This document shows, in pieces, positions 1-50,778 of a stretch of 64,000 bases of DNA. Made by a program: the position numbers and the translations under genes. Source of the DNA: a candidate division WWE3 bacterium RIFCSPHIGHO2_01_FULL_40_23 (GTDB lineage: Bacteria; Patescibacteriota; WWE3; UBA101185; 2-01-FULL-41-18); assembly GCA_001772615.1 (NCBI GenBank), contig MEUZ01000003.1, positions 286,433 through 350,432 on the forward strand. The letters are read 5' to 3'. The notes under the pieces were generated by a model. That model ran no database searches. It had not been told where the DNA came from and was given only the letters and a program-made list of their open reading frames with translations. Position 1 is the stretch's first letter; every line of letters begins with the position of its first letter.

Positions 1-3000
1 ACTTTTGAAGGAAAAACATAATTGGATTTTGCCACAGATATTGAGTAGGCTCCGGGTTCCACAATGAACTCATACCTTCCGTAAATATCTGAAATACCCT
101 GAACCTGCTGGCCTGTTTTAGTGTCTTTTAAGGTAATAACAGCAGGATCAAGCGGTTGTTTGGTCACGGAATCGTAAACAACGCCCCAAGGATGCCTTTT
201 CTTTTTTAAGAGACCGAAAAGGGCATACGGTATATTGTAAATCGGTATTTTTGAGATTGCGGTAAGATATATTTGCGTGAAGTTGTAAACACTAGGCAGG
301 TTAAGAAGTGTTACGGAAGTAGCAAGGGTTAAGGCCGATGCCCATCTTTTTGCAAATGCATCGTCTATTGCGGTTACGGCTCTACCAAAAAGAGGAATCT
401 TTTTTAGGGAATCCACTGATCTTTTTATGAGTGTGGGTTTTCTTAGCTCTTCCTTGGTTTCTGGGACTAATGCAAATAGCTCACTTCCCGAAGTAGTTGT
501 TTCAAACTCATGCCTTGCGTCAAACACATAGTTTTTATTCTGGCTCATTACCTCATAGTAGTAAATGGTTCCCGGCTTTAATCCTGTTATCTTAAGTTTA
601 TGTTCAGTTGTCTTTTCTTTTGAATAAACATCCGACCCGTAGTCGTAGCTTAATCCGTAGTTTACCTTGCTTGTGGCATGATGATTTGTTTTCCAGTAAA
701 TAACAGCGTAGTCCGTACCTACTTCTATTACCTTTACATCACTGATTATGGTGGGATCCCTGTCAAACCACACCTCGGCGGTAATGACTATGTTTTCAAC
801 AAGTTGGTCTATTACAGGCTGTATGGGACTTAAAAGATTTCCCGCAAACTCAATTAGTTCGGCAGGAAGTAAAGAAATAGCATCAGCTAAACCATCGGCT
901 ACGGTAGTTACAACGGTTGTTACGGTATCTACGGTATCCCAATATAAATCGGTAACTGCATCTACCACGTCTTCAATGATGGGAGTAATGGGTTCAATTA
1001 TGGAAGGGGGGGGAGTTTCGGATGGTGTCACTGTTGGTGTGACGGTTTCTGAAGGAATTGGAGTTGGGGTAGGTGTTGGGGTAGGAACGGGCGGGGGTTC
1101 CGAGATGGTAAGGTTAAATGTCTTTGACTCCCCTTCATTATCAAGTTCGTCCTTTCCGGATAGAGTTATTCTGTAATCACCATAGGGCATATCTTCATTT
1201 ACCCTGTAAGAAAAATCCGAATATTTATCCGATGTGTTCTTGGTGTTATCCGTTACCTCTGATCCATCAGAGGAAAAGAAGGTATCGGAGATGTTGATGT
1301 TTGAGATAAGGAATGTTGAATAGGTTCCAAGAGCCCCCTTCTTTTCTATTGTCAGTTTAACTTCTTTAGGGCCGACGGCTACCTCATTCTGCTCGCTGTC
1401 CCCATTTAGCGGATCAGTTATCTTTCCGTAAAAGGTTGGCCTTTGGCTTGTTATGTCAAAGGAGCTTCCAGACGCGTTAGAGCTATCTACTCTATTTAGA
1501 TTTACCGTTGGGCCCGTGAGATCAACAAAGACTGTTGATGATTCAGTTCTATCGTTATCCGCATCATCTATAGCCTTGACAGTCCATCTTCTTTTACCTT
1601 CTTTAAGCTTTCCGTCATTTCCCGATCCCCATGATCCTGATGATTTGGTATAAAGGGATATCTTATCATCAGAGTCGGAGGAAGTATTAAAACCGCTGTA
1701 GGAAATTACATAGCTTGACGTCTTTTTATCTTTTGTTCCGCTAGGCTTGATGTTTTCTATCTTAAAGTCACCGCTTGCTCCGTTATCTACACTAAAGGTA
1801 TAACTGTCAAGACCGTCATCATCTATAGCACCTTCCCATTTAAAGGTTGGTCTTTGATCATTGATGTAAGACTTATCATCAGGAAGGATGAGATCAAAAG
1901 ATTCAGGGTCTGTAGTATCATCAGAAGTAGCCGGGCCTGTTATCAGTTTTGAGATAGTTGCGGCAAAGGCTTCATTTCCAAAGTTATCTATAGCCCATAT
2001 TCTAAAGTAGTATGTGCTGCCGGTTGTTAAGCCGGTTATTATGGTGGAGGTAGCTGAAACATTGGTTAAGTCTGTATCATCGCTGTTATCCCATTCTGAA
2101 GCCGTTCCACTCCTTGCTTCTACATCAGTCTGATTTGTTCCATACCATATTTCATAATGGTTAAAGTTAGCTTCCGTTGCTCCTGCCCAGGTGAGAGGAG
2201 CCGTAGTGGATGTGGAAGTAGCTGTTAAGCCGCTAAGTCCGGATGGATCAAGATTATCAACCTCAAAGGAAGAGGAGGTAGCCACCGAGCCATCTTCCGA
2301 GAAATCACTTGGAGTTACCCTAACTCTGATATCCGTCTGGTTGGTGTCATCTAAAGATCCGTTACCATTTGATGATGATTTGGTATCCCATACTACGGTT
2401 AAGGTAATACTCCCCGTGGATGTGTCTATGGGATTGGACTGACCTACCTGGTAAGTGTCGGAGTCACTAAGGCTAACTGATCCTCCCGAAGGAGTAGCGG
2501 ATACTAGATCCAAATCATACCAGCTTGTCCCTGCATCATCCGAGTATTCAACCTTAAGTCTTGTATCCTGGCTATCAGTTTCTGAAACCGTAGTAGAGAA
2601 TGTAATGTATCCTGTTCCATCAGTGGCTTGAGATATGGACGTGGGAGCTGTTGCCGAGGGTGCATTAAAGTCCCATCCTGTGTTATTTAAAGAGTTGGTG
2701 ATATTAAACCCCGAAGTTTCAATAAAAGTAGAATTGACATTGTAGTTATCTTTTACATCAAGGTAAGATATTGTTCTTGTTCCTTGAGGGTCTATCTGGG
2801 CTTGAGTGTCAGTTATGGAAGACCTTAGAGACAATAGGTTACCTAAAGTACCTGATAGATTCATAGTACCTGTAATAGTCTGGGCTACACTTGCAGGAAA
2901 GGTTAAGGTTCTAGCGGGTGTAGTTATGTTTTTAGTAAGGTTAGTAAAGATTGTAGTGCCTGAAATACTTTGGTCTCCCCCATCAAGCACTACACTACCG

Positions 3001-6000
3001 CTTCTTGGTGTAAAAGTATCCGAGTTGCTCCAGTCCCCTCCTACATTTATCTGGTTACTGACTCCGGATTTAGTGTCAAGTGTTCCCCCCGTTATGGTTA
3101 AATCGTCATCTACATCTAAAGGATCCTGAAGTTCAAGAGTTAAAGATCCACCCCCATCATTAATAGTAAGATCATTAAAGGAATCCCCACCGGATGTTAA
3201 CGTTTTGGTTCCGCTCGTCCCGTTAAAGTTAACCAAGCCCGAGTTATGGGTAAAGTTTGCAGAGTTGGTGAAGTTTCCTCCGATGTTTAAAGTTGTGGGA
3301 GAGACAAAAGTCCCACCGGAAACCGTAACGTTATCTGTTACTGTTCTGGAGGAAATAGCCATTGTAGTAAAACCTGCGGACAAAGCGTTCATTTCATTCT
3401 GGGTTAAGGCTCTGGTGTACACTCTTACTTCGTCTATTTGGCCGTCATAGTCATTTCCAGATTTATCCTCATCTATTCCTATCGAACTTCTCTGGCTGGC
3501 TGTGTTTGAAGTGGATGTTGCGGTAAAAGTTATCGTGCCCGTAGCGGATTGAGAGACACTGTTAAGATACATGGTAACGGTATCGTTGGTATAGTCTATA
3601 GTGCAAACAACGTGATACCAAAGACCGGTAATAAGATTGGTAGCAGAGGTAGTTTTGGTTTGAACTGCTTCAGTATCACCGGCGGAACCAAAGCACTGCA
3701 GTTCATCACCGCTTGTCGCAAATCCCGCGCGGGTATCGGCGGTGCTATCCCCTGTAGATAAGCCAAAGATCTGATCAACCCCGGAATTGGAGTCTTTTCT
3801 TATCCAGGCGGCCATGGTAAAGACACTAATATTTTGAGCGAGATTTAAGCTATCACCCATGTTGAGGTAATCTCCAGCTCCATCAAAGTCCATGGCAAAA
3901 GGGTTGGTGTCTTCTATGTCAGGGGCAGTTGCCGTAAAAACAGCGTTGGTCGGTGTAGCGGTATTATTGTTGGTAGATGAATCTTCCACTGTTCCACTCC
4001 CTTCATTCATTTTCCAGTACCCAACTTCGGAGCTAGTTAAAGTGTCCGACGTAGGTGCGTCAAGCGTGTCAGAGGCATCAGTGAATAACACAGTGAGATT
4101 TTTGTAGGGCCAATCCCTGATTGGGAATGATTCAGCCGATCCGTCTCCATCTCCTTTATATGTAACAGTGGTGCCTGTGTTGAGGGTAGGCGTTTCTATG
4201 GGATCTGAACCGACTAGTCTTAGAGTCCCCCCGTCTTCCACGGTAAAAGTTGAGCCGCAGTCAAAGGAATAGCCATTGGTGTCAAAAATGCCCTCAACAA
4301 CGGTGCAGGTCTGGCTACTGGTTCTAAAGCCGGAGATAAGAGATGCGGCGTTGGAGCCCGTTTTATTAATCCTTAGAACTGAGGAGAAAGTACCACCAGT
4401 CATGCTAAGTGTTTGAGCGGCCGATCCCGTGAGGTCAATGGTTAGGTTCGCCCCTCCAAAAGTCCCTCCTGTCTGCGAAAAATTGCCGGTGACTGTAAAG
4501 GAAACTGCGGACGCGGGGTTTAAAATAAGTGTGCCTATTACGGTTAAGTCACCCATGGCGCAACTATCGTTTAATGCAAGGTCATCCGATCCACCCTTGT
4601 TTATAGTCATAGAATCCCAGGTAACTGTGCCGCACGTTAAAGTGTCATCGCCGAGGGATGAATTTAAAGTTAAATCTATGCCGTCGGGAAGCACATTTCC
4701 GCTGTTATTAATGCTGTCAGTCACACTTAAGGTGGTAATACTGGGGAATGTACCCCCGTTAAGAGTCAGATTACCGGTGAGTGTAATGGTGGTGCCTGTC
4801 ATGATAAGTTCCGCACCAACGTTTGAGGTGTAGCTTCCGGTTGATGTCCAGTTCCCGGTGATGTTAATAGTGCCGTTGTTAGTTATGGCTCCTGAAGTTG
4901 AGGGATTGGTACCGGCTATGGGTATTATGCAACTACTAGTAAATGTAATACCATGCGTTGAAGCCTTACTCAAGGTTACGGAATTCCAGGTAACTGTTCC
5001 GCACGTTAAAGTGTCATCGCCGAGAGAATCAGTTAATGTCAAATCTATGCCGTTAGGGAGCAAATTTGTTGCGTTATAAAGGTCGCCGGCCACGCTTAAA
5101 GTGGTGATGCCTGCAGGGAAAGTGCCCCCGTTAAGAATTAAAGTCCCGGCGGTAATGGATGTACCTGTCACTGTCAGGAACGACCCAGCGTTTTGTGTGT
5201 AGGGTCCGCTGTGAGTCCAGTTACCAGTTATGTTAATGGTGCCGTTGTTTTTTAGAACCGCTGTTGTGGTTGGATTAGTGCCGGCTATGGGAAGTACGCA
5301 GCTGCTACCTATGTTCATGTCGTATTGTAAACCCTTGGATATAGTTACGGAATTCCAGGTAACTGTTCCGCAAGTCAAAGTATCATCACCGGAAGTATTG
5401 GTTAATGTTAAATCTATGCCATTGGGAAGCACATTGCCGGTGTTATTCAGGCTGTCACCTACGCTTAAAGTGGTGACACCTGCGGGGAAAGTACCTCCGT
5501 TAAGGGTGATTACTCCCCCCGTGAATGTAACAGAAGTACCTGTCATAATAAGGAACGCCCCTGTGTTTGATATATAACCCCCGTTGTGAGTCCAGTTACC
5601 AGTTATGTCAATAGTGCCGTTGTTTGTGATAGCTGCGGTGGTAGACGGATCTGTGCCTGCTATGGGGAATGTGCAGTTGCTTGAGATTGTGACAGAGTTT
5701 GAGGAGGAACCTTTACTGATATTTATGGCATTAAATGTGACTGAATTGCAGGAATAAACGGAGGTGGTAGTGCCATCAAAAGTTATTGTTCCACCGCCAG
5801 CGCTAAATACGGGGGAACCCGAGATGGTCAGGGAGGAGGAAATAGTCATTGTTTCGGAAGTGGCGGTAAAAGTTCCTGCAGATAGTGTGAAGGCTCCATT
5901 CAGGTCAATTGTTTGGGAGGTACTGTCAAAAGTACCGGCCGCCTGATCAAAGTTACTGGAACCGATTGCTAAACCCGTGTTTGCGGTAATGATACCCGTG

Positions 6001-6353
6001 TATCCGGAATTAATATCAATGCCTGCTACTGAACCCGCAAAGCCTGAATCAATGTTGGAGTTTTTGGTTGATGTTGAACTAAAAGTCGCGATGTCTGATG
6101 ACCCGGGTTGCGTATCATCTGACCAGTTAGCATCACATGACCACTTTTCCCCGTCTCCCACACCTCCCCCGCATGTACCATCTGTTCCCTCCCCATCCCA
6201 GGTTCTTACTACTGCGTAAGATTTCCCGGAATACAAAAGAAGTAAGAATATAAAAATACACAGAGCTGCAAAAAACCTTAAGCAGACGTTTACAAAATTA
6301 ATTTTTGCAAAAGCAAAAACACCGAAACTTAATCCGCGGTTAGAAAATTTCAT
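1..6353 (-). CDS. Giant secreted/surface repeat protein, partial: the C-terminus lies beyond the window start. It is interrupted by paired frameshifts near 5100 and 4978.
   Basis: The ATG at 6353-6351 opens MKFSNRGLSFGVFAFAKINFVNVCLRFFAALCIFIFLLLLYSGKSYAVVRTW..., a signal peptide/TM N-terminus. Manual translation downstream gives Gly/Thr/Asn-rich repeats (GTFTA, ITGNWTHNGG, LTLNGGTFPAG, DDTLTCGTVTW). A LamG_3 motif set spans ~3400-3900 (FAMDFDGAGDYLNMGDSLNLAQNISVFTMAAWIRKDSNSGVDQIFG ... GIDEDKSGNDYDGQIDEVRV). An FN3-like ITGLTTGSTYYFRIWAIDNFGNE sits at ~1980-2040 and a PT linker PTPTPTPIPSETVTPTVTPS at ~1020-1080. Frame 0 relative to 6353 was spot-checked open at 1020, 1980, 3420-3900 and 4440-4979. 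The ORF track lists no minus-strand ORF here. Confidence 0.75.
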   Translation of the reverse strand, partial: MKFSNRGLSFGVFAFAKINFVNVCLRFFAALCIFIFLLLLYSGKSYAVVRTWDGEGTDGTCGGGVGDGEKWSCDANWSDDTQPGSSDIATFSSTSTKNSNIDSGFAGSVAGIDINSGYTGIITANTGLAIGSSNFDQAAGTFDSTSQTIDLNGAFTLSAGTFTATSETMTISSSLTISGSPVFSAGGGTITFDGTTTSVYSCNSVTFNAINISKGSSSNSVTISSNCTFPIAGTDPSTTAAITNNGTIDITGNWTHNGGYISNTGAFLIMTGTSVTFTGGVITLNGGTFPAGVTTLSVGDSLNNTGNVLPNGIDLTLTNTSGDDTLTCGTVTWNSVTISKGLQYDMNIGSSCVLPIAGTNPTTTAVLKNNGTINITGNWTHSGPYTQNAGSFLTVTGTSITAGTLILNGGTFPAGITTLSVAGDLYNATNLLPNGIDLTLTDSLGDDTLTCGTVTWNSVTLSKASTHGITFTSSCIIPIAGTNPSTSGAITNNGTINITGNWTSTGSYTSNVGAELIMTGTTITLTGNLTLNGGTFPSITTLSVTDSINNSGNVLPDGIDLTLNSSLGDDTLTCGTVTWDSMTINKGGSDDLALNDSCAMGDLTVIGTLILNPASAVSFTVTGNFSQTGGTFGGANLTIDLTGSAAQTLSMTGGTFSSVLRINKTGSNAASLISGFRTSSQTCTVVEGIFDTNGYSFDCGSTFTVEDGGTLRLVGSDPIETPTLNTGTTVTYKGDGDGSAESFPIRDWPYKNLTVLFTDASDTLDAPTSDTLTSSEVGYWKMNEGSGTVEDSSTNNNTATPTNAVFTATAPDIEDTNPFAMDFDGAGDYLNMGDSLNLAQNISVFTMAAWIRKDSNSGVDQIFGLSTGDSTADTRAGFATSGDELQCFGSAGDTEAVQTKTTSATNLITGLWYHVVCTIDYTNDTVTMYLNSVSQSATGTITFTATSTSNTASQRSSIGIDEDKSGNDYDGQIDEVRVYTRALTQNEMNALSAGFTTMAISSRTVTDNVTVSGGTFVSPTTLNIGGNFTNSANFTHNSGLVNFNGTSGTKTLTSGGDSFNDLTINDGGGSLTLELQDPLDVDDDLTITGGTLDTKSGVSNQINVGGDWSNSDTFTPRSGSVVLDGGDQSISGTTIFTNLTKNITTPARTLTFPASVAQTITGTMNLSGTLGNLLSLRSSITDTQAQIDPQGTRTISYLDVKDNYNVNSTFIETSGFNITNSLNNTGWDFNAPSATAPTSISQATDGTGYITFSTTVSETDSQDTRLKVEYSDDAGTSWYDLDLVSATPSGGSVSLSDSDTYQVGQSNPIDTSTGSITLTVVWDTKSSSNGNGSLDDTNQTDIRVRVTPSDFSEDGSVATSSSFEVDNLDPSGLSGLTATSTSTTAPLTWAGATEANFNHYEIWYGTNQTDVEARSGTASEWDNSDDTDLTNVSATSTIITGLTTGSTYYFRIWAIDNFGNEAFAATISKLITGPATSDDTTDPESFDLILPDDKSYINDQRPTFKWEGAIDDDGLDSYTFSVDNGASGDFKIENIKPSGTKDKKTSSYVISYSGFNTSSDSDDKISLYTKSSGSWGSGNDGKLKEGKRRWTVKAIDDADNDRTESSTVFVDLTGPTVNLNRVDSSNASGSSFDITSQRPTFYGKITDPLNGDSEQNEVAVGPKEVKLTIEKKGALGTYSTFLISNINISDTFFSSDGSEVTDNTKNTSDKYSDFSYRVNEDMPYGDYRITLSGKDELDNEGESKTFNLTISEPPPVPTPTPTPTPIPSETVTPTVTPSETPPPSIIEPITPIIEDVVDAVTDLYWDTVDTVTTVVTTVADGLADAISLLPAELIEFAGNLLSPIQPVIDQLVENIVITAEVWFDRDPTIISDVKVIEVGTDYAVIYWKTNHHATSKVNYGLSYDYGSDVYSKEKTTEHKLKITGLKPGTIYYYEVMSQNKNYVFDARHEFETTTSGSELFALVPETKEELRKPTLIKRSVDSLKKIPLFGRAVTAIDDAFAKRWASALTLATSVTLLNLPSVYNFTQIYLTAISKIPIYNIPYALFGLLKKKRHPWGVVYDSVTKQPLDPAVITLKDTKTGQQVQGISDIYGRYEFIVEPGAYSISVAKSNYVFPSK
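4440..5760 (-). repeat. Tandem array of about 3.5 near-identical ~369-bp (~123-aa) coding repeats inside the giant gene
   Basis: The motif gtaactgt(t/g)ccgca(c/a)gt(t/c)aaag recurs at 4621, 4991 and 5359, with spacings of 370 and 368 bp. The translated units are nearly identical: ...PIAGT(D/N)P(S/T)T..ITNNGTI(D/N)ITGNWT...LNGGTFP...NGIDLTL...GDDTLTCGTVTW. Confidence 0.85.
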
Positions 6354-6402
6354 TTGTATTTAAATTTTACATGTGGACGACGGACATTTCCACCTCTATG
6401 AT

Positions 6403-6487
6403 GTCATTCTGGTGAAAGCCCAGAATCTAGGATTATAGATCCCGGGTCAAGCCCGGGATGACATGAAGTCAGTTCAGGATGACAAGC
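6403..6487. repeat. Array of 2-3 short hairpin repeats (GTCAT-stem-loop-ATC family) in the tsaB / giant-gene intergenic region
   Basis: Unit one is gtcatTCTGGtgaaagcCCAGAatc. Unit two is gATCCCGGGtcaagCCCGGGATgacat. A half-unit tcaggatgac follows. The same flank motif recurs at 20862-20952, 23323-23336 and 50696-50760. Confidence 0.7.
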
Positions 6488-6496
6488 GATGCGGAT

Positions 6497-6808
6497 TCAA
6501 GAAGGCTCGTCAAACTTACTTCGTTGATAATTTGGGATAATTAACCTTTTAGAACTCTTTTTTAATACGGCCCAGTTTAAAGCATTCACAACCGCAGCCG
6601 AAGCTTTTAATCCCGTAAAAGAACCCGGACCTTCATTCATCTCAAAAGAAGTGATATCGATAACTTCAAGTTTATTTTTTCTAAAAAGTTTCTCAAGAGA
6701 TGAAACTACATCAATACTCCCCAAGATTTCATCCAAAACCTTATTATCTTTATACAAGATCACTTTATCATTTCCTCTTTCAGTACAATCAATGTAAATC
6801 CGATACAT
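6497..6808 (-). CDS. tsaB: TsaB/YeaZ-like t6A biosynthesis protein, N-terminal domain only (103 aa, apparently truncated)
   Basis: Carries the GPGSFTGLKASAAVVNALNWAV motif typical of the TsaB N-terminal domain. It ends directly at the hairpin-repeat array. Confidence 0.6.
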   Translation of the reverse strand: MYRIYIDCTERGNDKVILYKDNKVLDEILGSIDVVSSLEKLFRKNKLEVIDITSFEMNEGPGSFTGLKASAAVVNALNWAVLKKSSKRLIIPNYQRSKFDEPS

Positions 6809-20559: not shown

Positions 20560-20860
20560 CATTAGAAAACATAAAAAGACCAGCCCTGGTCCGCCCTAAC
20601 TCAAAAGTGAGGGTAAGAAGAACCTGGCCTTAAGGAGAGAAACACACATGGATCCTGGTTTCAGCCGCAAGACCAATCGCCTTTATGATCACCCCTGCAC
20701 CGCGGCCAACGACAACGGCACCAGCTAGCGCGCCGGCCGGGCCCTAAGGGTTGTAAATGAACACAACCCCCCAAAGGCCAACAAACCCTCGGTTCTTGCG
20801 ACCAATGAACCGGGGGTTCCCTTTTCCCATTTCACATTGAAACTTAAAATGTACCTTCTC
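20560..20860 (-). ncRNA. Candidate structured ncRNA or foreign island. GC is about 57% over ~300 nt in a ~39% GC genome. Class unknown.
   Basis: No ORF of 60 aa or more. Contains strong local helices (GGGTTGT...ACAACCC, GGCC...GGCC, CCGCGG runs). The minus-strand terminator at 20574-20597 lies at its 3' end. Alternatively, on the plus strand, an SD (aaggagag) precedes a 27-codon ORF MDPGFSRKTNRLYDHPCTAANDNGTS. Confidence 0.3.
20574..20597 (-). terminator. Intrinsic terminator on the minus strand
   Basis: Minus strand reads GGACCA gggc TGGTCT followed by TTTTTATGTTTTC. Confidence 0.5.
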
Positions 20861-20861
20861 T

Positions 20862-20952
20862 GTCATCCCGGACCTGCCTGTCGTAGACAGGCACATGATC
20901 CGAGATCTCCACAAAAGATCCAACGGGATCCCTGCTTTCGCAGGGATGACAT
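20862..20952. repeat. Hairpin repeat array of the same GTCAT/ATGAC family
   Basis: gtcatCCCGGACCTGCCTGTCgtagACAGGCA ... gATCCCTGCtttcGCAGGGATgacat. It translates to the VIPAKAGIP-type spurious ORF 20744..20974. Confidence 0.7.
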
Positions 20953-21022
20953 GAGAGCATTTGATCAGGATCAAAATTTGTAGAACAATGCTTTCACATC
21001 AATAAGATAAGGAGAGATCCTC

Positions 21023-22159: not shown

Positions 22160-22717
22160 TTACTTCACCTCCTTTAACCTGTTCATTATGTCAAGGAAAA
22201 TTTCCTCAATAGACCTCTCTCCATCTACATCCTCCACAATACCTTTGGCTTTAAAATACTCTATCACCGGACCTGTTTTTAAATCATGCTCCGAAAGGCG
22301 TTTTAAAACCGCTTCCGGTGCTTCATCCGATCTATGCTCTAAATCAACTCTCTTCTGAATTCTTTTCATATATTCGTCAGGGCTCACAATCAAATTAAAG
22401 ACCTTATCAAGCTTGATATTTAATTCCTCCTCCATAAACGGGATCTGATCCACCGTTCTTGGAAAACCCGTGAAAACAAAACCTTTGTTCGCGTCACACC
22501 GGTTCTTAACATATTCTTTTATAATCTGAAAATAAATTTCTTCGGGGACATACTCGCCGCGGTCCATATATTCCTTCGCTTTCATACCCATTTCAGTCTC
22601 GGAGCTTTCTCTTAGCATTGCCCCGCTGTCAAGGAAATTTAAATTTAATTTTTTTGCGATAAGTTTAGCTTGTGTGCTTTTACCCGACCCCTGCGGCCCG
22701 CTTACAAGTATATGCAT
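22160..22717 (-). CDS. Adenylate-kinase-family NMP kinase, second paralog
   Basis: P-loop VSGPQGSGKSTQA, an NMP-binding region and a short LID. 185 aa. Confidence 0.75.
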   Translation of the reverse strand: MHILVSGPQGSGKSTQAKLIAKKLNLNFLDSGAMLRESSETEMGMKAKEYMDRGEYVPEEIYFQIIKEYVKNRCDANKGFVFTGFPRTVDQIPFMEEELNIKLDKVFNLIVSPDEYMKRIQKRVDLEHRSDEAPEAVLKRLSEHDLKTGPVIEYFKAKGIVEDVDGERSIEEIFLDIMNRLKEVK

Positions 22718-22757
22718 AAATTATTATAGGCACCAATAAAAAGAAATGTCCAAAGCA

Positions 22758-23291
22758 CTATGAAGCATTCATATGGGAAGTAATTTGATTAAACACATCT
22801 TCTTTGTCTTTTTCGCCGTCAATTTCTACAAGTCTTCCAAGTCCTCTGTAATAATCCAAAACTTTTGACGTTTTCTCATGGTACCAGGAAAGCCTGTTCT
22901 TAATTCCTTCTGGGGTGTCATCAACCCTTCCTCTTGCCCTTAATCTATTCACAGCAGTTTTATCAGAAATATTAATAAAAAACACGTTACTCACATAGGG
23001 GTCATACATATACAGCTGTTCTATTGAGCGGGGATATCCGTCAAGAACATACCCATTTCTACAATCATTCATTGAGAGCCTTAACTTTAAAATTTCAGAT
23101 GCATACTCGTCGGGGACAAGCTTTCCCTCCTTCATAAGCGAACAGGCTTGTCTGTTAAAATCGGCTTCCACTTTGCAGGATTCTCTGATCAGATCGCCTA
23201 TATCTATAAGAGGTGCGTTGAGCCAATTCGCAAGAAGTTTTGCCTGCGTCGTCTTTCCGCTTCCCTGCGGCCCAAGAATTGTTATTTTCAC
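22758..23291 (-). CDS. adk: Adenylate kinase (short type)
   Basis: ILGPQGSGKTTQAKLLA ... VLDGYPRSIEQ ... RARGRVDD. Canonical position after secY. Confidence 0.85.
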   Translation of the reverse strand: MKITILGPQGSGKTTQAKLLANWLNAPLIDIGDLIRESCKVEADFNRQACSLMKEGKLVPDEYASEILKLRLSMNDCRNGYVLDGYPRSIEQLYMYDPYVSNVFFINISDKTAVNRLRARGRVDDTPEGIKNRLSWYHEKTSKVLDYYRGLGRLVEIDGEKDKEDVFNQITSHMNAS

Positions 23292-23586
23292 TTTTTTATT
23301 ATATATCTAAACTATCGCGGATTGTTTTGTGTCATCCTGAACCCTTTTGGACAACCAATTTTAATAATAGTAATATAGAACAATCCCAAAGGAGTTCTAA
23401 CATGTCCATGCAAAAAGCGGATTTTGAAGAAAACGATCCCGAAACAATGCGCTTGAGAAGGCAATTCATGACCTGGGTGATGATAATCTTCGCTATCGCA
23501 CTGGCGGGGATCATAACCCTTGCCATCCTCCCAATGTTTCTGTACTAGAACCAGACCAAACCGCTGTTTGCCAAAACGGCGGTTTT

Positions 23587-50692: not shown

Positions 50693-50695
50693 AGT

Positions 50696-50760
50696 GTCAT
50701 TCCCGCGGAAGCGGGAATCTCACTAGATTTTCGCTGGAGTTTACCCTACGAAAGCAGTGA
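50696..50760. repeat. Hairpin repeat (gtcatTCCCGCggaaGCGGGAatc) plus a degenerate second unit, same family
   Basis: Same GTCAT...ATC flank as the 6403 and 20862 loci. Sits between xseA and the small membrane ORF. Confidence 0.65.
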
Positions 50761-50778
50761 ATATATTCCTGGTGCAGG

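Follow-up and report, generated by a model that had tools for sequence, protein, structure and literature searches.

The closest known counterparts of the hairpins considered here are the NTS of Neisseria, an oriented 28-nt element with the consensus CGTCATTCCCGCGMAVGCGGGAATCYRG, and the enzyme that acts on it is SsnA, a single-domain GIY-YIG nuclease of about 94-95 aa (CDD cd10448) that binds the NTS and cuts a few bases upstream (Chenal et al., Nat Commun 2025; PMC11893778). SsnA acts on ssDNA only, and only on the strand that reads as NTS, with RNA left uncut; its binding depends above all on the C directly 3' of the palindrome, its cleavage is governed by the three bases upstream of the palindrome, and the N. 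meningitidis enzyme loses its activity on an altered stem sequence with the hairpin shape retained, while extensions at the loop position of the NTS are tolerated (PMC11893778). Copies of the motif typically lie on both sides of the ssnA genes, a layout (NTS-ssnA-NTS) that has been likened to REP/RAYT, and in Neisseria the enzyme lowers the integration of transforming DNA bearing NTS (PMC11893778). NTS-like sequences, termed “Ssn-related motifs” or SRM, were found across many phyla, the search pattern being HGTCWYN(0-2)YYVSBRHN(0-5)WNVSBRGN(0-2)RNCYNB, and 19% of the SRM-rich genomes were without ssnA (PMC11893778). There is also an overlap with a second Neisseria repeat, dRS3, half of whose copies lie within NTS and which is known to be targeted by a phage recombinase (PMC11893778, introduction).

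The DNA analysed here is a 64,000-nt stretch (hereafter the window) from a candidate division WWE3 bacterium of Rifle groundwater, a member of the Candidate Phyla Radiation (CPR). CPR bacteria are known for their minimal genomes, their episymbiotic lifestyle and their reliance on DNA uptake. Nearly all genes of the window lie on the minus strand, and they include ribosomal-protein operons, rpoBC and the gene for a giant surface protein (2314 aa). A sequence-only reading of the window had proposed a dispersed, REP-like family of short hairpins with conserved GTCAT and ATC flanks, and the hairpins are indeed where it placed them, with the stems it named. A scan for GTCAT and ATC enclosing a perfectly paired stem (5 bp or longer) with a 3-9-nt loop returned exactly four sites, with the stems TCTGG, CCCGGG, CCCTGC and TCCCGC, against a chance level in first-order Markov shuffles of 0.01 per window (maximum 1). 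A stricter scan, for GTC, a palindrome of at least 7 bp with AT at both ends, and C, found the same four, with 0.03 expected. The GTC…C hairpins of the window are real, and far above chance. When long loops and one stem mismatch were allowed, a fifth unit appeared at 20862-20907. The AT after GTC pairs with the AT before C, so the unit is better written as GTC-[AT…AT palindrome]-C, a notation in which the paired stem is 7-8 bp long; of the flanks originally described, GTC and C hold up, and the AT on either side belongs to the outer stem. Unpaired and invariant in all five complete units are thus the GTC 5' and the C 3' of the palindrome; a T precedes GTC in all window units, and mostly a T follows ATC.

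Site 1 is flanked by a 103-aa TsaB-like ORF and the giant gene. Unit 1a (6403-6427, plus strand), an intact SRM-type hairpin, GTC-ATTCTGG-tgaaagc-CCAGAAT-C, is the left half of an inverted pair with heads outward, and 10 nt separate it from the right half, unit 1b (6438-6462, minus strand), also an intact SRM-type hairpin, GTC-ATCCCGGG-cttga-CCCGGGAT-C. Beyond them lies copy 1c (6472-6484, minus strand), consisting of the head only, TGTCATCCTGAAC, with the complementary 3' arm absent. Site 2, where map and a 75-aa AsnC-type ORF diverge across a spacer of 544 nt, likewise has an inverted pair with heads outward. Its left half, unit 2a (20862-20907, plus strand), is a composite, GTC-ATCCCGGA-[26-nt loop]-TCCGAGAT-C, with 7 of 8 stem positions paired and a nested hairpin, CCTGCCTGTC-gta-GACAGGCA, in the loop; its right half, unit 2b (20927-20950, minus strand), is an intact hairpin, GTC-ATCCCTGC-gaaa-GCAGGGAT-C. 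The earlier description of 20862-20952 as plain hairpins therefore suits the right unit and not the left. Both pairs give a branched ssDNA fold closed by ATGTCAT/ATGACAT, with z = -4.5 at site 1 and about -4.5 to -5 for the two. ARAGORN finds no tRNA or tmRNA, so an origin of the branched folds from either was rejected.

Site 3 is the spacer of 98 nt that separates xseA from a 76-aa ORF. Unit 3a (50696-50719, plus strand), an intact hairpin, GTC-ATTCCCGC-ggaa-GCGGGAAT-C, precedes the xseA start codon (50680) by 16 nt, with its reverse complement on the transcribed strand. Whereas this left hairpin of the stretch 50696-50760 was correctly recognised, the right part is at best a decayed copy, 3b (50739-50762, plus strand; GTTTACCCTACGAAAGCAGTGAAT), for which the evidence is weak: by eye, 16 of its 24 bases are identical to unit 2b on the GTCAT strand, and there is a 14-nt match with one mismatch. 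The remaining copy, unit 4 (23330-23342, plus strand), which had been placed about 7 nt off at 23323-23336 as a half-unit, is a head of the same 13-mer, TGTCATCCTGAAC, as 6472-6484(-), and the adk start codon is ~40 nt downstream of it; a distant 3' arm was searched for with both head-only copies, 1c and 4, and none was found. The count for the window is thus five complete and two or three partial units, every copy intergenic, and as the additional 20 kb around the window (10 kb per side) held no further copy, the copy number is low, at about 5 per 84 kb. Between sites, the common sequence is confined to heads of 11-13 nt and never exceeds 13 nt, so the units are not pieces of one longer duplication, and the original description of a dispersed, REP-like hairpin family that did not arise by simple duplication stands.

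Compared with the published SRM pattern, the window gave exact matches at 6402-6430(+) and 6435-6463(-), i.e., units 1a and 1b, where 0.145 are expected per shuffled window. Only two of the four short-loop units pass this strict pattern; the regions of the other two, 50695-50722 and (counted by hand) 20924-20951, are each two substitutions off. At up to two substitutions the pattern also yields dozens of coding matches and is unspecific, for which reason it was left out of the counting, and the membership of 3a and 2b rests instead on the oriented hairpin itself: in all five complete units there is a palindrome with GTC directly 5' and C directly 3', the very positions on which cleavage and binding by SsnA depend (PMC11893778). 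The region of unit 3a (50695-50722) shares 24 of its 28 positions with the NTS consensus; within it, 50699-50718 is an exact ATTCCC-N8-GGGAAT, the Neisseria dRS3 repeat. In the other units, ATYC…GRAT encloses other inner bases, and the dRS3 label suits only 3a. The long-loop unit 2a fits the tolerance of the NTS for loop extensions. As a matter of motif, membership in the SRM is well supported, and the best explanation of the window hairpins as a whole is probably that they are SRM/NTS-like repeats, putative targets of an SsnA-type enzyme.

The same kinds of hairpin recur in other DNA. A pilot scan of IMG/VR for GTCATYCCYGCGRAAGCRGGRATC returned at least 120 loci; among the matches listed, 252 of 282 GTCAT hairpins end in ATC, stems outside the scan pattern co-occur with the selected ones, the TCCCGC and CCCTGC stems both recur, and the bases before GTC and after ATC are mostly C. 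The stem of unit 2b was seen at least four times in the IMG/VR sample, the 25-mer of unit 1b (GTCATCCCGGGCTTGACCCGGGATC, loop included) is identical in seven unrelated IMG/VR contigs, and the TCTGG stem of unit 1a recurs more weakly, in four stretches. Apart from this weaker case, the other three of the four stems are seen elsewhere, one of them with its loop, and the window thus holds members of several conserved stem subfamilies shared with unrelated organisms. The flanks of the 25-mer in L241-L251 look GC-rich, and the window genome has 40% GC; the presence of the 25-mer in GC-rich surroundings suggests either a strong constraint on loop and stem or horizontal spread. The sequence-only reading had regarded the elements as selected for structure with stems free to vary, which was an overstatement, given that three of four stems recur elsewhere and that SsnA also reads stem sequence (PMC11893778). 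The arrangement of the hairpins recurs as well, since close pairs elsewhere were heads-outward in 37 cases and heads-inward in 8 among the matches listed, with unlike stems in half of the outward pairs listed. At one locus (L046), hairpins at 3005-3028(+) and 3354-3377(-), heads outward, flank a 97-aa GIY-YIG ORF (PF01541, E = 2.6e-15), and this locus independently reproduces the published NTS-ssnA-NTS layout.

Syntenic WWE3 relatives were reached via two protein searches and contig look-ups, with XseA 55-66% and Map 63-67% identical to those of the window. The order ruvX - small ORF - xseA is common to the window and three relatives (L234, L235 and L236), and the spacer from the small ORF to xseA is shortest in L234 (6 nt), followed by L236 (18 nt) and L235 (68 nt, with an ordinary T-run terminator), and reaches 98 nt in the window, where it holds hairpin 3a and the possible decayed copy 3b; hairpin 3a is absent from the orthologous spacer in all three relatives. 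Upstream of map, the spacer is 37 nt in L240 (adk2-map), about 143 nt in L238 (adk-map), 54 nt in L239, behind a divergent RF-1-domain gene, and 544 nt in the window, counted from the AsnC-type ORF. Strict units are lacking in ~86 kb of the syntenic WWE3 relatives and in 896 kb of other metagenome loci, and there is one (in L142) in 255 kb of other CPR loci. In two contig collections, the best relatives of Map and the ABC transporter are 47-55% identical along most of their length, three short fragments being closer, and the ABC-transporter loci, which are non-syntenic, serve as background only. At the other extreme, contigs with variants of the Map 90% cluster and contigs from other samples are 99.2-100% identical to the window, representing the same genome or nearly so, and comparison of the hairpin sites among them yielded no informative polymorphism, the differences in L148 being scaffold gaps. 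The units are missing from the xseA spacer, the single orthologous spacer in the direct comparison, and from all DNA retrieved from the syntenic relatives, so they were gained in the lineage of the window.

One of the relatives, L239 (GCA_964373525.1), has an SRM-like cluster of its own, in which nested hairpins are packed into the infA-rpmJ spacer of ~200 nt (4578-4756). It includes a complete long-loop unit, GTC-ATCCCGAA…TTCGGGAT-C, with a loop of ~39 nt, that opens with a head, GTCATCCCGAAC, closely similar to copy 1c, and an adjoining nested hairpin, CCTGCCTACC…GGTAGGCA, like that inside unit 2a; this neighbour has no GTC head, and its inner CCTGCCT…AGGCA is common with unit 2a. SRM-like units thus occur at non-orthologous sites of two or more WWE3 lineages, which argues for gain and loss rather than for an inherited regulatory element.

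This bears on whether the hairpins might work at the level of RNA, as terminators, mRNA 3'-end stabilisers or translational regulators (e.g., of xseA), a role that the sequence-only reading had entertained together with an association with terminators. Their intergenic locations, their stability and GNRA-like loops (GAAA, GGAA), and the position of one unit, 3a, where the ribosome-binding site of xseA is expected, are what such a role would predict. However, there is no T-run at any unit, and in a terminator scan none passes and no site overlaps any unit. The orientation relative to the surrounding genes is mixed, 1a and 3a being antisense and 1b and 2b sense, so that no single RNA reading fits, and the xseA-proximal hairpin is missing from three relatives with the same gene order. 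Nothing in the whole window reaches the gathering threshold of Rfam, the same exact sequences stand beside unrelated genes in unrelated organisms, and SsnA is inactive on RNA (PMC11893778). We consider an RNA-level function very improbable. The sole sub-threshold Rfam match near site 2, to Poribacteria-1, was rejected, with 22 bits against a threshold of 74.2 and E = 0.2.

The gene contexts of the three sites had been named correctly in the sequence-only reading, with the exception of “tsaB”: the ORF in question, 6497-6808(-), has 103 aa, its match is to the TsaD family of Pfam at 22.8 bits, below the threshold of 24.8, and it could represent a TsaB in truncated or highly reduced form. The association with operon boundaries amounts to no more than “intergenic”. 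Right after site 1 begin two consecutive genes for giant surface proteins (window 1-6355(-) onward; 10874-20438 in L007), of 2314 aa and >2443 aa, with matches to fn3, Laminin_G_3 and CarboxypepD_reg, and internal DNA repeats of ~700 nt at 72-74% identity lie at window positions 4593-5681. Tandem adenylate-kinase paralogs occupy 22160-23291(-), and the adk-map interval holds a Band-7 gene and the 75-aa AsnC-type ORF, which is on the opposite strand and has the ligand-binding domain only; L240 differs from the window in having adk2 directly before map. Between the site-2 pair and map there is also a GC-rich stretch of ~290 nt, 20570-20860(-), which ends in a terminator-like hairpin and T-run (20592-20577(-)), and has no Rfam match and an RNA fold z of -2.5; the stretch could represent an unannotated small RNA or a leader upstream of map.

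A practical consequence of these hairpins concerns gene calling. The 76-aa ORF 20744-20974(-), with its VIPAKAGIP, exists and was rightly called spurious, since VIPAKAGIP is the translation of hairpin 2b. In the spacer of site 2, one assembly annotates a 50-aa gene (L003 2583-2735). SRM-like hairpins explain a class of spurious ORFs from gene callers, those with VIPAKAGI…-type peptides, and hairpins of this type probably seed many of the “hypothetical proteins” in the databases; a search of the literature for peptide words (VIPAKAGIQ, RFRGNDG and similar) found no papers.

A hairpin family of this kind is most likely explained by a protein partner of its own. The search for an ssnA covered the window and 10 kb per side, 84 kb in all, in which tblastn found neither an Ssn gene nor any other of the GIY-YIG type, no GIY-YIG domain is among the precomputed Pfam calls of all genes, and an Ssn HMM (120 homologs) has no match in the six frames. 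In a protein-database search with two Ssn homologs as queries, which gave at least 8000 matches in a family of >8000 clusters, the source contig was absent among the 120 matches listed. As the 84 kb are part of a 434-kb contig in a multi-contig genome, the absence of ssnA from them says little.

A partner that reads the stem raises a question of its own, since five stems in one small genome would call for several nucleases or a tolerant one, unless the units are inactive relics. If an ssnA does accompany five stems in a genome of ~1 Mb, it would constitute a compact natural system for the study of stem reading by Ssn enzymes. The relic state, in which the nuclease was lost or never present and the SRM-like repeats are orphans, is a real alternative given the stem sensitivity of the N. 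meningitidis enzyme, the five stems and the low copy number. Such orphans might have spread as targets of an IS110/IS1111-type recombinase, as reported for Neisseria dRS3, or might have been carried in and be decaying now. The head-only and decayed copies, the few copies overall and the lack of an ssnA within 84 kb are in keeping with this, and precedents are at hand in the 19% of SRM-rich genomes without ssnA and in the phage recombinase that targets dRS3 (PMC11893778). Nevertheless, the four perfect stems with intact GTC and C flanks speak of a recent origin or an ongoing constraint, the 84 kb contain no recombinase or transposase either, and they are a small fraction of the genome, the contig alone being 434 kb. 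On balance, we think it unlikely that the repeats are orphans.

If, as we favour, the hairpins are targets of an SsnA-type enzyme, the palindrome would, in single-stranded DNA, fold into a hairpin on the strand that reads GTCAT, and an Ssn-type GIY-YIG nuclease would bind it and cut the single strand a few bases upstream. The WWE3 genome would then encode, or would recently have encoded, an Ssn nuclease elsewhere, and the units, rather than being RNA signals, would act at the DNA level, on strands exposed in uptake, recombination or replication. Because CPR bacteria live as episymbionts and take up DNA, a single-strand “restriction” directed at incoming DNA would matter to their biology. In the same scheme, the gene-less inverted pairs would be non-autonomous relatives of the NTS-ssnA-NTS cassette. 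A bolder version, which we put forward as a long shot, is that the pairs at 6403-6462 and 20862-20950 and the nested composites, which are found in a second WWE3 lineage also, are mobile, non-autonomous derivatives of NTS-ssnA-NTS, possibly served by one stem-tolerant nuclease. If true, this would amount to a MITE-to-IS relationship for a GIY-YIG single-strand nuclease and to direct evidence of SRM transposition, the host being a CPR episymbiont of ultra-small size with a life based on DNA uptake.

Set beside MITEs, sites 1 and 2 do resemble gene-less cassettes with inverted ends, TGTCATYC… / …GRATGACA. However, the “ends” in the window are independent hairpin units that are also found singly, and the flanking bases (TGA/TGA at site 1, CTC/TGA at site 2) form no consistent target-site duplication.

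The likeness to REP, BIME and REPIN elements lies in the short intergenic hairpins, the inverted doublets and a presumed dedicated enzyme that acts on single strands. The conserved head of a REP is a GTAG-type tetranucleotide. Doublets mobilised by a RAYT (a TnpA-REP Y1 transposase) or by an IS200/IS605 relative, the partners suggested in the sequence-only reading, would explain short intergenic palindromes that often form inverted pairs and fold into larger structures, and the analogy between NTS-ssnA-NTS and REP-RAYT has been drawn in print (PMC11893778). The head in the window is GTCAT, however, and the motif, with its exact matches to the SRM pattern, is that of SsnA targets, so that the partner indicated is a GIY-YIG enzyme and not a Y1 HUH transposase; the Pfam calls over the 84 kb include no Y1 transposase domain (PF01797), and no RAYT was seen there. 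A REP-type origin is thus hardly to be expected.

There is a likeness to the Neisseria dRS3 and NIME also, in that unit 3a is an exact dRS3 and the pairs resemble the dRS3-bounded mosaic elements, although the RS units of 50-150 bp are not present between the pairs and the host phylum differs. The family that the hairpins match is that of the NTS and SRM themselves, with which the window shares the GTC + AT…AT palindrome + C in intergenic positions, the inverted pairs with heads outward, as around ssnA, and the neighbourhood, one window cluster adjoining a giant surface-protein gene as Neisseria NTS clusters adjoin membrane-protein genes. The differences are that there are few copies here and hundreds in Neisseria, with no ssnA within 84 kb, that five units have five stems, that a T stands before GTC and mostly after ATC where elsewhere it is mostly C, and that the host belongs to the CPR, the main text of PMC11893778 making no mention of CPR or Patescibacteria. 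What is new with respect to that main text is the host lineage (CPR, WWE3), the composite long-loop units, the pairs of unlike stems and the T before GTC; the repeat family was already described in 2025, and hairpins that match it are a case of a new host, not of a new kind of element. A recent repeat/nuclease system is thereby extended to the Candidate Phyla Radiation, and the current picture of the family is left unchanged.
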